Shown in pieces: positions 3,145 to 15,179 of a stretch of DNA of 32,251 nucleotides. The notes beneath the pieces were generated by a model, which was given only the letters and a program-made list of their open reading frames with translations, was not told the origin of the DNA and did not search any database. This stretch comes from Candidatus Woesearchaeota archaeon (GTDB lineage: Archaea > Nanobdellota > Nanobdellia > Pacearchaeales > GW2011-AR1): assembly GCA_964407005.1 (NCBI GenBank), contig CAYOTW010000003.1:1-32251 (forward strand), given 5' to 3'. The stretch's first letter is position 1. Each line of letters begins with the position of its first letter. Position numbers and translations under genes: made by a program.

Positions 3145-3171
3145 TTTTTATTCTCTAATTCCTAAGTACAA

Positions 3172-3285
3172 GCCATTTGCTCTTGACTATCCTTTCTTCC
3201 ACTTCAAGAGTGAATTCGGGGAGAGCGAGCCATTTGCTCTTGACTATCCTTTCTTCCACTTCAAGAGTGAATGGGGAGAGAAGGA
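3172..3285 (-). repeat. 57-nt tandem duplication (2 copies: 3172-3228 and 3229-3285) carrying a degenerate second copy of the tRNA-Leu 3' end
   Basis: Plus-strand unit gccatttgctcttgactatcctttcttccacttcaagagtgaa occurs twice exactly. Copy 2 ends in the true tRNA 3' end (tggggagagaagga). Copy 1 ends in tcggggagagcga. Each unit holds a 7-bp hairpin, ctcttga-N17-tcaagag. Confidence 0.9.
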
Positions 3286-3356
3286 TTCGAACCCTCGCAG
3301 GCATTTAAACCAACGCGGCCTTAACGCGTCCCGTTTGACCGCTCCGGCATCTCCCC
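3272..3356 (-). tRNA. tRNA-Leu (class II, long variable arm); anticodon reads AAG in the only 5-bp-stem/7-nt-loop fold
   Basis: Minus strand: GGGGAGA TG CCG GAGCGGTCAAA CGG G ACGCG TTAAGGC CGCGT TGGTTTAAATGCCTGC GAGGG TTCGAAT CCTTC TCTCCCC A (85 nt). It lies between rpoD and rpl18e, where a tRNA-Leu is found in other archaea. Confidence 0.85.
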
Positions 3357-12233: not shown

Positions 12234-12273
12234 CTTCAAGTTTTTTCTAGAGCACCTTTTTAAAATAATAAAG

Positions 12274-12383
12274 TAGACAGCTCCATGCTTTCCCATCAAA
12301 AGACAGTACCGACATGAACATAGGAAGCTTAACTTCTGTGTTCGGAAAGGGAACAGGTGTGACCAACCTATTATGGCTGTCTA
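12274..12383 (-). rRNA. rrf: 5S rRNA (orphan, not linked to 16S/23S in this window)
   Basis: Minus strand: UAGACAGCCAUAAUAGGUUGGUCACACCUGUUCCCUUUCCGAACACAGAAGUUAAGCUUCCUAUGUUCAUGUCGGUACUGUCUUUUGAUGGGAAAGCAUGGAGCUGUCUA. Terminal helix AGACAGC/GCUGUCU, the CCGAAC..AGAAGUUAAGC loop C/helix III signature and GUACUG are all present. A T-rich tract follows the 3' end. Confidence 0.9.
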
Positions 12384-12446
12384 AAAATATTACAATTCCA
12401 GGCTTTTTAAGCTTTTCTTTTTGTAATTTTGAAATTAAAACGAAAA

Positions 12447-12965: not shown

Positions 12966-13066
12966 GAGGGAGTGCCGGAGCGGTCAAACGGGACGGACTC
13001 AAGATATACGATTAATGAGTAATCCGTTGGCTTATGCCTACAGGGGTTCGAATCCTCTCTCCCTCA
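12966..13066 (+). tRNA. tRNA-Leu(CAA) with an 18-nt intron at the canonical 37/38 site
   Basis: GAGGGAG TG CCG GAGCGGTCAAA CGG G ACGGA CTCAAG[atatacgattaatgagta]A TCCGT TGGCTTATGCCTAC AGGGG TTCGAAT CCTCT CTCCCTC A. CTCA (anticodon loop) pairs with TGAG (intron) between 3-nt bulges, forming a bulge-helix-bulge motif. Confidence 0.88.
13004..13021 (+). other. tRNA intron (canonical position, BHB motif)
   Basis: See the tRNA-Leu(CAA) fold. Mature length is 83 nt after removal. The boundary is ambiguous by 1 nt (a/a). Confidence 0.75.
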
Positions 13067-13157
13067 TTAGCAGGATTCGAATAGTTCGAATCACTTCAAT
13101 CTTGCAAAAGTTGAAGTCCCAGAAATTTTCAATTTCTGAGCTCTCTCCCTCATTAGC
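13067..13157 (+). repeat. tRNA-Leu 3'-end echo unit 1: T-loop look-alikes, the 48-nt two-hairpin module (13093-13140), then an exact copy of the tRNA 3' end plus flank (ctctctccctcattagc, 13141-13157)
   Basis: ttcgaatc|MODULE|ctctctccctca. Deleting the module restores the tRNA sequence 13047-13066 exactly. The 52 nt at 13089-13140 are identical to 14849-14900 and 14930-14981. Confidence 0.9.
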
Positions 13158-13270
13158 CTATCAAAGATAGGCTGGAGACGAATGCTATAAACTCTCTATA
13201 ATTTTATTACAGGGGCGAATAATTCGCTTCGACAACTATCTGTATAAGATGGAGATGCAAATTGTGAGCA

Positions 13271-13433
13271 GAATCCTCTCTCCCTCATTAGCAGGATTCG
13301 AATAGTTCGAATCACTTCAATCTCTATGCAGAACGCAGTGGACAATTTCAAAGGAAAGTTGAGCCACAAGAAAACCTTGGTTTTCTTAGGAGTTGAAGTC
13401 CCAGAAATTTTCAATTTCTGAGCTCTCCCCCTA
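13271..13433 (+). repeat. tRNA-Leu 3'-end echo unit 2: a 53-nt exact copy of 13050-13102, a long variant of the module, and a degenerate tRNA 3' end
   Basis: 13271-13323 equals 13050-13102. The 8-nt tip of hairpin 1 (tgcaaaag) is replaced by 69 nt (13324-13392), which contains a 9-bp hairpin aagaaaacc/ggttttctt. The rest of the module (13393-13422) is identical. It is followed by ctctcccccta. Confidence 0.88.
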
Positions 13434-13446
13434 TCAATGCTTAAAC

Positions 13447-13476: not shown

Positions 13477-13552
13477 GCCCTTGTAGCTCAGCTTGGATTA
13501 GAGCACTTCCCTCCTAAGGAAGGGGTCGCAGGTTCGAGTCCTGCCGAGGGCG
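13477..13552 (+). tRNA. tRNA-Arg(CCT)
   Basis: GCCCTTG TA GCTC AGCTTGGATTA GAGC A CTTCC CTCCTAA GGAAG GGGTC GCAGG TTCGAGT CCTGC CGAGGGC G. 76 nt with a standard cloverleaf. Confidence 0.9.
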
Positions 13553-13598
13553 TAAAACCTGCTCGCAAGTTCCACATAAAGTGTACCCACAAGGGGCA

Positions 13599-13618
13599 GA
13601 GTCCTGCCGAGGGCGTAA
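13599..13618 (+). repeat. Exact 20-nt echo of the tRNA-Arg 3' end plus 3 nt of flank (gagtcctgccgagggcgtaa equals 13536-13555)
   Basis: Direct repeat separated from the original by 43 nt (13556-13598). The echo starts inside the T-loop (TTC|GAGT). Confidence 0.9.
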
Positions 13619-14760: not shown

Positions 14761-14831
14761 GCGTGGGTAGTTTAGTGGCAGAATCTTTGGCTTCCAACCA
14801 AATGACCCGGGTTCGAATCCCGGCCCGCGCA
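14761..14831 (+). tRNA. tRNA-Gly(TCC)
   Basis: GCGTGGG TA GTTT AGTGGCA GAAT C TTTGG CTTCCAA CCAAA TGAC CCGGG TTCGAAT CCCGG CCCGCGC A. 71 nt. Confidence 0.9.
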
Positions 14832-14993
14832 TTTCTTGGCCGGGATGTAATCACTTCAATCTTGCAAAAGTTGAAGTCCCAGAAATTTTCAATTTCTGAG
14901 CCGGCCCGCGCATTTCTTGGCCGGGATGTAATCACTTCAATCTTGCAAAAGTTGAAGTCCCAGAAATTTTCAATTTCTGAGCCGGCCCGCGCA
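14820..14993 (+). repeat. 81-nt perfect tandem repeat (2 full copies plus a 12-nt third start). Each unit is the tRNA-Gly 3' end ccggcccgcgca, a T-arm look-alike, and the 48-nt two-hairpin module
   Basis: 14820-14900 equals 14901-14981 exactly, and 14982-14993 repeats ccggcccgcgca. Module copies lie at 14853-14900 and 14934-14981. Confidence 0.93.
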
Positions 14994-15038
14994 TACGCAA
15001 TCGAACAAAGTGAGATGCGTGTTGGATTCTAAGCAGAA

Positions 15039-15117
15039 CCGGGTTCGAATACAACAAATTGCTTTGCAATTTGTGTTGCCAAAATTATGAAAGAATTTTT
15101 AGCACCCGGCCCGCGCA
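15039..15117 (+). repeat. Partial tRNA-Gly T-arm/acceptor copy interrupted by a different 54-nt two-hairpin cassette
   Basis: ccgggttcgaat|acaacaaattgctttgcaatttgtgttgccaaaattatgaaagaatttttagca|cccggcccgcgca. Removing 15051-15104 restores tRNA positions 49-73 exactly. Confidence 0.88.
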
Positions 15118-15167
15118 CACTTTTTCAATTAAAGCTTGACGGCACTAAAAATCTTTGATTTTTTTAG

Positions 15168-15179
15168 CCGGCCCGCGCA
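15168..15179 (+). repeat. Fifth and last exact copy of the tRNA-Gly 3' end (ccggcccgcgca)
   Basis: Preceded by a 50-nt insert (15118-15167) that contains the hairpin aaaaatc-ttt-gattttt and ends in ag. It is followed by tac, as is copy 3. Confidence 0.88.

Follow-up and report, generated by a model that had tools for sequence, protein, structure and literature searches.

Two-hairpin modules arrayed behind tRNA genes of a DPANN archaeon: a possible non-autonomous dispersed element at tRNA 3' ends

What kind of sequence is a 48-nucleotide (nt) module that recurs, letter for letter, behind two different tRNA genes of one archaeon, each time within a copy of that tRNA's own 3' end? The question is raised by the 32,251-nt contig CAYOTW010000003.1 of a Candidatus Woesearchaeota archaeon, a tiny DPANN archaeon of groundwater type (assembly GCA_964407005.1), which was analysed as a whole and is here referred to as the window. 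The module, here called M, lies in the trailers of tRNA-Leu(CAA) and tRNA-Gly(TCC), where downstream repeats of the tRNA 3' end (together referred to as "echoes") stand in a row. Tentatively, and with somewhat less than even confidence, we read M as a non-autonomous dispersed hairpin element, whose arrays arose by serial insertion at tRNA 3' ends, in the manner of attachment (att) sites, by an enzyme acting in trans. The arrays look like a previously undescribed arrangement, and M looks like a small dispersed element rather than a gene or intron; the literature searched contained no account of arrays of this sort. On this reading M is the youngest, multi-copy member of its family, which behaves like a dispersed repeat of Woesearchaeota- and Pacearchaeota-type DPANN archaea. 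On balance, a repeat at the level of DNA is favoured by the sharp ends of M, its several contexts, its presence or absence at a given site, the nesting and decay of modules, the polarity of the arrays and the assembly breaks.

M has three exact copies on the + strand (13093-13140, 14853-14900 and 14934-14981), where none is expected (100 shuffles). There is also an expanded form at 13314-13422, which opens with the first 10 nt of M (13314-13323) and closes with its last 32 nt (13391-13422). These coordinates are exactly those of an initial annotation made from the sequence, which had also placed the junction at 61|62 in both tRNAs. Our own parsing agrees: each M splits the tRNA 3' copy at the junction of T-loop and T-stem, and its right flank is the exact last 12 nt of the upstream tRNA, namely ctctctccctca at 13141-13152 (Leu) and ccggcccgcgca at 14901-14912 and 14982-14993 (Gly). 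The left flanks end in ...ttcgaatc (Leu) and ...gtaatc (Gly). The two-hairpin fold of that annotation is recovered as well. H1 (acttcaa/ttgaagt with a GCAA cap) and H2 (cagaaatt/aatttctg) together give -13.5 kcal/mol with z = -4.15, and none of 200 shuffles is equally stable. H1 starts at the first nucleotide of M and H2 stops 2 nt short of its end; the two are unrelated in sequence. The ends of M (ACTTCAA... and ...TTTCTGAG) are not mutual inverted copies, so M has no terminal inverted repeats. The apex of H1 varies from 4 nt to a branched insert of 75 nt. The boundaries ACTTC...CTGAG are identical in four unrelated flank contexts, i.e. Leu, Gly and two metagenomic loci (L005 and L010); M opens with ACTTCAA and closes with CTGAG each time, and its ends are therefore sharp. 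No target duplication was found around M itself, including at L005 and L010.

Outside the window, a metagenome scan with a 20-mer yielded eight matches, three of which are true copies of M (L005, L008 and L010). In L005, a Hainich groundwater contig, M is flanked by a protein gene on either side, and its H2 loop is longer by a single T. In L010, from the same sample, M lies upstream of a KaiC-like gene and carries two substitutions, one giving a U-G or U-A pair and the other turning GCAA into GUAA. L008 has a variant of M, with a different H1 apex, behind tRNA-Met at the end of the contig. The remaining five matches were rejected as chance: four lie in nusA coding sequence and one in sequence unrelated to M. 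In bacterial nusA (L004, L006, L007 and L011) the 20-mer, TTGAAGTCCCAGAAATTTTC, happens to encode the conserved EIEVPEIF motif. Among species-representative genomes, which do not include the source genome, the same 20-mer had two chance matches, both in Bacteroidota coding sequence. Four patterns (the M core, H1 of M, the L015 variant and the Leu-AAG module) had no match in viral contigs, and blastn against phages and plasmids found no match.

The neighbourhood of M in L010 has features of its own. Just to the left of M, the sequence (…ccattcaacgtttcgaggagattaaa) repeats directly, at 80% identity, one that lies 126 nt farther upstream (1030-1195), and M is thus placed in a duplicated copy of the end of the upstream sequence, which is not recognisable as tRNA; tRNA-like fragments (cccggaggtcgagag) stand between the two repeats. 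Contigs of KaiC-like homologues begin just upstream of that gene, and no more sequence was gained from them.

Relatives of L008 were fetched by means of the RNase HII gene that adjoins its tRNA-Met. Four assemblies of a Pacearchaeota-like lineage (L015-L018), identical over 430 nt, show in order a tRNA-Met ending ...ggttcaaatcccaccctcgcta, a 30-nt trailer, a 56-nt module (ACTTCAAAAGCAATGCCTTTTGAAGT-CG-CCAAAATTTCTTTTAGAAATTTTTAGTG) and the echo cccaccctcgcta; at 60|61, the module, a diverged homologue of M, has the T-loop copy ttcaaat on one side and the T-stem 3' strand on the other. L008 and L015 are 88% identical in H1 and 87% in the tRNA, 59% in the trailer and 68% in the upstream spacer. 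The H1 difference includes a paired T-A to A-T swap, a compensatory change of the kind proposed in the initial annotation as a check on the hairpins. More distant loci with the same gene order (L022 and L024) have a plain T-run after tRNA-Met, and L025 is also without a unit; the unit is thus variable and lineage-restricted. Moreover, assemblies break at M independently in L001 and L008, as is expected for a repeat.

Some further observations concern these tRNA-Met loci. After the echo in L015 (3640-3745, - strand; also in L016-L018) comes an 87%-identical second trailer and left flank (ttttaataaatctgggaggatttttcaaat), followed by tatttctcccccc in place of the module, with a GGGAG...CTCCC hairpin; this second copy is perhaps the unit in an older or empty state. 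The Pacearchaeota-like L025 (9530-9870, - strand; likewise L026 and L027) has two intron-bearing tRNA genes back to back beside RNase HII: tRNA-Met, whose intron is ~44 nt long, and tRNA-Ser(GCT), whose intron is 71 nt long. Both introns are at the canonical position, and neither gene has echo units. In L020 (2784-3632), whose RNase HII is 93% identical to that of L008, an rve-family transposase gene occupies the place where others have tRNA-Met and the unit.

Within the window, echoes accompany all four tRNA genes, as the initial annotation had noted: tRNA-Leu(CAA) has two exact and one decayed, tRNA-Arg(CCT) one, tRNA-Gly four and tRNA-Leu(AAG) only 8 nt. No 3'-end echo was found at the 5S rRNA, which has a T-run at its end. 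The DNA between the repeats is 50-120 nt long and non-coding, with no open reading frames (ORFs), and the repeats themselves vary in length (8, 12, 13 and 16-17 nt). The coordinates are compiled in Table 1.

Table 1. Coordinates of the arrays, inverted flank segments and recombinase fragment
Feature	Coordinates	Strand	Details
tRNA-Leu(CAA), intact, 18-nt canonical intron	12966..13066	+	Head of Leu array; Rfam tRNA 43.9 bits; ARAGORN i(38,18)
Leu unit 1, left flank	13067..13092	+	ttagc + AGGATTCGAA (reverse complement of tRNA nt 54-63) + tag + ttcgaatc (direct T-loop copy)
M copy 1	13093..13140	+	48 nt
Echo 1 of tRNA-Leu 3' end	13141..13152	+	tRNA nt 62-73; repeat runs 5 nt into the trailer (ttagc)
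Leu unit 2	13208..13287	+	Partial tRNA copy tacagggg (13208-13215), 55-nt filler M3 (13216-13270), gaatcctctctccctca (13271-13287)
Leu unit 3	13288..13436	+	26-nt left flank, same as in unit 1 (13288-13313), expanded M (13314-13422), decayed echo ctctccccctatca (13423-13436)
tRNA-Arg(CCT) trailer unit	13553..13615	+	Inverted aacctgc (13556-13562), direct quasi-copy tcgcaagttc (13563-13572), ~22-nt filler, ggcag (13595-13599), echo gagtcctgccgagggcg (13599-13615)
tRNA-Gly(TCC), intact	14761..14831	+	Head of Gly array; Rfam and ARAGORN
Gly units 1 and 2	14832..14993	+	Exact 81-nt tandem, two copies as assembled from short reads
Gly unit 3	14994..15117	+	Spacer, decayed partial tRNA-Gly (anticodon arm to T-loop, 15022-15050), M2 (15051-15104) at 60|61, echo cccggcccgcgca (15105-15117)
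Gly unit 4	15118..15179	+	C4 (15118-15167) directly between two echoes, then echo ccggcccgcgca (15168-15179)
tRNA-Leu(AAG) trailer	3171..3271	-	44-nt unit (3228-3271, 3171-3214) repeated around 8-nt echo ctctcccc (3218-3225)
Inverted segment, Gly			GGCCGGGAT; reverse complement of tRNA nt 59-68; 9-nt inverted match
Inverted segment, Leu			AGGATTCGAA; reverse complement of nt 54-63; 10-nt inverted match
Inverted segment, L015			GGTGGGATTT; reverse complement of nt 57-66
Inverted segment, L008			CAGGATTTGAAC; reverse complement of nt 53-64
Tyrosine recombinase, C-terminal 76 aa, cut by contig end	1..228	+	Ends KSPLDNLF; TIGR02249 integron integrase 105.7 bits

In the Leu array, unit 2 without its filler reads tacagggg, a gap and gaatcctctctccctca, and it aligns to nt 73-101 of the gene with only 'ttc' missing. 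A 53-nt block that runs from the end of the tRNA T-loop through echo and left flank into the first 10 nt of M occurs twice with 100% identity, 221 nt apart (13050-13102 and 13271-13323), which points to a recent segmental duplication or conversion within the array. The inclusion of the trailer letters ttagc in the repeat fits a DNA event rather than selection on the tRNA sequence. Nested in the H1 apex of the expanded M is M' (13341-13390), a diverged member of the same family.

Each of Gly units 1 and 2 consists of tttctt, GGCCGGGAT (reverse complement of tRNA nt 59-68), g and taatc, followed by M and the echo. With M2 removed, 38 of 45 columns of unit 3 are identical to tRNA-Gly nt 27-71, the split falling exactly after the T-loop; it is an att-like partial copy of the tRNA, from the anticodon arm to the 3' end. 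Unit 4 is a minimal cassette of module plus echo. The array has a polarity: the two units next to the tRNA are identical, and those farther away have diverged.

Pairwise alignments of the modules, scored against shuffles, gave z = 8.1 for M' with C4, 5.4 for M2 with the L015 module, 4.5 for M with C4, 3.6 for M with the L015 module and 3.4 for M with M'. Judged by these scores, M, M', M2, C4 and the L015 module form a family of ~50-nt two-hairpin modules with the 3' end (T)AG. In the window the family is confined to the trailers of tRNA-Leu(CAA) and tRNA-Gly; an M covariance model (R1) and a family nhmmer profile found no further member in the 32-kb window or in ~150 kb of related loci. The tRNA-Arg(CCT) unit, which recurs in the independent Logan contig L001, has the same architecture as the Leu and Gly units with an unrelated filler and no module of the M family. 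The 44-nt unit of tRNA-Leu(AAG), with a 7-bp stem (ctcttga/tcaagag), is at best weakly related to M (z = 2.9). The trailer of tRNA-Leu(AAG) lies between rpoD and the L18e gene (3171-3281, - strand) and contains a 57-nt tandem duplication of 94% identity. The wider family that fills the tRNA-Gly array and the homologues in other lineages had gone unseen in the initial annotation, as had the palindromic nature of the left flank.

That flank had been taken for a T-loop look-alike of the local tRNA. It does include a short direct copy of the T-loop, but it is chiefly an inverted copy of tRNA nt ~54-68, that is, of the T-loop/T-stem 3' segment. Such inverted matches are reached by 0-1 of 2000 shuffles each (1/2000 for Leu, 1/2000 for Gly). 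Deleting M leaves a perfect hairpin of 9-10 bp with a 3-nt loop, followed by the remaining acceptor strand; its energy is -12.7 kcal/mol for Leu (10 bp) and -17.4 kcal/mol for Gly. The L015 flank matches the reverse complement of its echo better than the 5' T-stem strand of the tRNA (bulged T). M itself sits in the 3' arm of the palindrome, at a position that is fixed relative to the tRNA coordinate and not to the hairpin.

Perfect palindromes built from the T-loop/T-stem 3' segment and its reverse complement could have arisen without any dedicated element. Fold-back or template-switch errors at tRNA genes, with filler DNA, would have made the units, unequal recombination would later have amplified them, and M would have spread by short-homology copying through the shared T-loop sequence. 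Such errors explain the direct-inverted-direct copies best, and the tRNA-Arg unit shares the inverted and direct layout around its unrelated filler. The block common to Leu and Gly (aatc + M + c) is bounded by sequence present in both T-arms, the repeats are of 8-17 nt, tandem duplications are on hand (exact ones of 81 nt in Gly and 53 nt in Leu-CAA, besides the 94% one of 57 nt in Leu-AAG), and the hairpins fold equally on both strands. However, the M copies of L005 and L010 are sharp-ended without T-loop homology, and to the right of M the Leu and Gly copies share just 1 nt of homology. For the family to stand at one tRNA coordinate in a second lineage and behind a different tRNA, a rare accident would have had to happen again and again, and H1 is conserved as strongly as the tRNA, with a compensatory change. 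We hold this explanation to be unlikely, yet it is the main rival of our reading.

On our preferred reading of a dispersed element, the modules would pile up behind tRNA genes as cassettes, each made of a module and a direct repeat of the last 12-17 nt of the tRNA. Serial att-like insertion would take place at or next to the junction of the T-loop and the T-stem 3' strand, in the tRNA or in tRNA-derived DNA, in such a way that a working tRNA would always be regenerated upstream and older cassettes would be pushed downstream to decay there. The enzyme would act in trans, its most natural candidate being a tyrosine recombinase that uses the T stem-loop or 3' terminus of tRNA genes, and the hairpins and the palindromic flank could be its recognition features. 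That insertion rather than duplication made the units, that such an enzyme acted, and that the mobile unit was either M alone (48 nt) or the 62-110 bp cassette, we infer.

Much of this has precedent. Archaeal integrases usually target tRNA genes. The T stem-loop and the 3' end are sublocations of their att sites, the overlap regions lie in tRNA loops, and integration restores the tRNA (PMC8371274). When elements integrate one after another, the older ones are moved outward and partial tRNAs stay behind (10.1101/2020.12.28.424599; PMC9897764). The polarity seen here, with identical Gly units near the tRNA, diverged ones far from it and a decayed third Leu echo, matches the serial tRNA-site integration of tycheposons (10.1101/2020.12.28.424599). 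As with the attL/attR partial-tRNA repeats of tycheposons and of integrated archaeal plasmids and viruses, an intact tRNA is followed by its 3' part as a direct downstream repeat (here exact over 12-17 nt), and several such repeats stand in a row with the older ones farther from the tRNA (PMC8371274; 10.1101/2020.12.28.424599; PMC9897764). The 45-nt copy in Gly unit 3, from the anticodon arm to the 3' end, is typical of attR. The units differ from those repeats in the short distance between echoes, a mere 50-120 nt of non-coding DNA free of any integrase or cargo; in the tRNA identity block, which is interrupted in or beside the T-loop each time; in the left flank, an inverted copy through which a perfect palindrome is formed; and in the occurrence of the same module at different tRNAs.

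A likeness to REP/BIME/REPIN, Correia and Rickettsia palindromic elements and to archaeal miniature inverted-repeat transposable elements (MITEs) is also apparent: all are tens of nucleotides long, non-coding and palindromic, recur at several loci between genes at the 3' ends of transcription units, include nested and decayed copies and break short-read assemblies. Unlike them, M has neither terminal inverted repeats nor a target duplication, is made of two unlike hairpins instead of one repeated palindrome, and is strongly associated with one coordinate of tRNA-derived sequence; no cognate transposase (RAYT or IS) was identified for it in the sequences covered.

Several points weigh against the insertion of such an element. 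A double-stranded circle of 80-110 bp is physically implausible as a Campbell-type intermediate, the varying repeat length (8, 12, 13 and 16-17 nt) argues against a fixed staggered cut, and standard site-specific recombination offers no explanation for the palindromic left flank. The identity block, contiguous in a classical attR, is interrupted in 9 of 9 units; if scars had formed first and modules had entered them later, the rate of hits would have to have been very high. None of the units has a linked recombinase, transposase, Cas1 or reverse transcriptase; the sole tyrosine recombinase is a 76-aa fragment 3-13 kb off, which may simply be XerA. There are only about five independent loci, the census covering this contig and the fetched metagenome loci. 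Finally, the association with tRNA fragments, which the initial annotation expected of copies in other assemblies, is seen for the L008 copy at tRNA-Met but not for those of L005 and L010, whose flanks are unrelated to those of the window and contain no detectable tRNA or Rfam RNA.

The recombinase fragment at the start of the contig aligns to the very end of the TIGR02249 model, and XerD, XerC and archaeal XerA score ~100-102 bits on it. By inference only, it is a candidate for the trans-acting enzyme. A 177-aa 'Recombinase' protein (1355-1888) was rejected as the enzyme: besides an N-terminal zinc ribbon (CxxC...CxxC), all that it shares with large serine recombinases is their DNA-binding recombinase domain (PF07508; A118 integrase 4kis, E = 3.6e-06), and lacking a catalytic resolvase domain, it is not a candidate. 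The two small ORFs of this region (940-1888, + strand) adjoin the gene for ribosomal protein S9, and the upstream one, of 127 aa, has no match.

Do the units act instead as RNA? A structured trailer RNA could be transcribed together with the tRNA and freed when the tRNA 3' end is processed, its left flank and echo pairing in a closing helix, and could work as a stable small RNA, a processing or termination element or a mimic of the tRNA 3' end. The units are probably transcribed. All tRNA-linked copies have the orientation of the tRNA, with no T-run between the tRNA and the unit. The L015 unit folds with a closing helix GGUGGG/CCCACC followed by H1 and H2 (z = -3.6), and the Gly unit shares this three-way junction, closed by GGCCGG/CCGGCC (z = -2.8), whereas the Leu unit is without a closing helix. 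The compensatory change in the hairpin, the GCAA to GUAA change of the cap in L010 (GNRA to GNRA) and a left flank that tracks each lineage's own tRNA sequence would also suit an RNA. On the other hand, the opposite strand folds with the same or better energy, and the sense strand shows no enrichment of G-U pairs. Since the hairpins form as readily in either strand, there is no specific pointer to RNA, and G-U wobble was dropped as evidence for it. Leu echo 3 and Gly units 3 and 4 are decayed, unlike a selected RNA, related lineages manage without the unit, and the echo repeat continues into the trailer. M has no Rfam match at the gathering threshold nor at E <= 10. We think a functional trailer RNA, such as the processed small RNA suggested in the initial annotation, quite unlikely but conceivable.

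As to particular kinds of RNA, ribozymes (hammerhead, twister, pistol) gave no Rfam signal and were set aside. A C/D-box or H/ACA small RNA was likewise rejected: CUGA stands at the 3' end of M, but there is no C box, C'/D' spacing, ACA or pocket. A scan for sigma-70 promoters and intrinsic terminators is uninformative for an archaeon.

The junctions at 60|61 and 61|62 fall within the range of known non-canonical intron sites, and att copies of tRNAs have been proposed as vectors of introns (PMC3293823; PMC8371274). The initial annotation had accordingly raised a mobile intron-like insertion, and M might interrupt the T-loop at a non-canonical position, either as an archaeal tRNA intron or as a piece of a split or permuted tRNA. 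This idea failed: no bulge-helix-bulge (BHB) motif or relaxed variant (hBH/HBh') is formed in the Gly, Leu and L015 folds, where the 5' junction lies in an unpaired stretch of 9-11 nt and the 3' junction 2 nt from H2. Moreover, the interrupted copies are non-functional fragments without the D arm and the 5' acceptor strand, the anticodon arm being present only in the decayed Gly unit 3, and an intact tRNA stands directly upstream. The transposed non-canonical BHB introns of Thermoproteales ('attP as intron vector', PMC3293823) are alike in being near-identical short insertions at the same coordinate of unrelated tRNAs, with integration-derived copies. They differ in their BHB and in their hosts, which here are non-functional 3' fragments, and the insertion here is neither required by a working tRNA nor spliced out of one. 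Scarcely any chance is left to an intron.

The initial annotation had named, as one of three hypotheses, a miniature element that targets GAATC, comparable to IS200/IS605 derivatives. A discrete non-autonomous element agrees with the four contexts, the presence or absence at the orthologous tRNA-Met, the nested and decayed relatives and the assembly breaks, but GAATC is true only of the tRNA-linked copies and the likeness to IS605 was not upheld. In that case a Y1 transposase would have carried M as single-stranded DNA and placed it 3' of a short target motif; in a variant, M and the echo would be what is left of a guide RNA, the echo having been the guide and the T-loop the target-adjacent motif. 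The lack of a target duplication around M, the hairpins at both ends and the geometry 'AATC, element, sequence identical to the intact site', which mirrors the homing logic of IS605 elements, are in its favour. Yet the motif to the left is not conserved (AATC, AATC, TTAA, AAAA, AAAT and CAAA), H1 and H2 are unlike and flush with the ends of M, leaving no space for cleavage and guide segments, 48 nt is far below any known omega or reRNA scaffold, and the search for the Y1 transposase TnpA, or for TnpB, found neither in the window or the fetched loci. We regard this origin as highly improbable.

An integrase of the casposase (Cas1) or integron type is another conceivable source, in which the tRNA would serve as leader and the modules as inserts or attC-like folded sites, while the tRNA 3' end would supply the duplicated target ('repeat'). 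Gly unit 4, just a module and a 12-nt repeat between two repeats, has the form of such an insert, and tandem casposons share their target duplication at tRNA-Leu 3' ends (PMC4779613). As in those casposons and in CRISPR-like arrays, a duplicated tRNA 3' segment separates inserts beside an intact tRNA, with additions apparently on the tRNA-proximal side. Casposons, however, are kilobase-sized and have terminal inverted repeats, Cas1 and PolB, and a fixed duplication (14 bp in M. mazei), whereas the inserts here are ~50 nt without inverted termini, the repeats are not of fixed length (8-17 nt), and neither Cas1 nor PolB was seen in the window.

An integron attC site is a double box, R''-L''...L'-R', with a GTTRRRY core, and its R''/R' pairing has the consensus RYYYAAC/GTTRRRY. 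Without its bulged T, H1 reads CTTCAAC...GTTGAAG and matches it in 6 of 7 positions (R'), and its apex is variable like that of attC. The resemblance extends to an R''/R'-like hairpin base with an extrahelical T, to the arrays and to a recombinase of the Xer/IntI kind nearby, the fragment's best NCBIfam match being an integron integrase; integrons also exist in Nanoarchaeota (10.1101/2022.02.06.479319). But H1 is too short for a two-box attC and there is no L box, the cassettes have no ORFs, the attC crossover would fall inside M and not at its ends, and Xer families score nearly equal on the fragment. In either form, casposase or integron, this source appears very unlikely.

It is also decidedly doubtful, though conceivable, that the tRNA trailers are acquisition arrays of a new kind, in which the tRNA is the leader, its last 12-13 nt the repeat, and the ~50-nt modules are inserted at the T-loop/T-stem junction by an unrecognised structure- or sequence-guided mechanism. 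The palindromic copies would then be landing pads that spare single-copy tRNA genes, and they could seed T-loop insertions of a non-canonical kind in working tRNAs.

If the modules are mobile, they would be among the smallest site-preferring elements known (48-56 nt) and the first example in DPANN archaea, whose mobile-element biology is almost unknown. It would then be testable how the tRNA genes of reduced genomes survive constant targeting, for which the regenerated tRNA and the decoy copies suggest a survival strategy. It would also be testable whether insertion-bearing, att-derived tRNA fragments are a source of non-canonical introns and split tRNAs (PMC3293823; PMC8371274). If the units are no more than scars of repair, they would still document an unusual, recurrent direct-inverted-direct duplication focused on the T-arm. 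In practice, the arrays break short-read assemblies at tRNA loci and lead to false or partial tRNA calls in the annotation of metagenome-assembled genomes.

As for the setting, the window encodes an archaeal ribosomal-protein and RNA-polymerase operon, SecDF and glycosylation genes. Its GH130 protein is recorded at NCBI and in one Logan run; the nearest homologues of this protein, ~60% identical, are annotated as Nanoarchaeota, Woesearchaeota or Pacearchaeota; they are not syntenic with the window and have no tRNAs nearby. Rfam matches tRNA at 12966-13066, 13477-13552, 14761-14831 and 3272-3356 (- strand), and 5S rRNA at 12272-12384 (- strand). The D-arm and class II architecture of tRNA-Leu(CAA) match those of tRNA-Leu(AAG); ARAGORN in its default setting (no introns) missed this gene, and with introns allowed it miscalled it as tRNA-Met(CAT), one base out of register.

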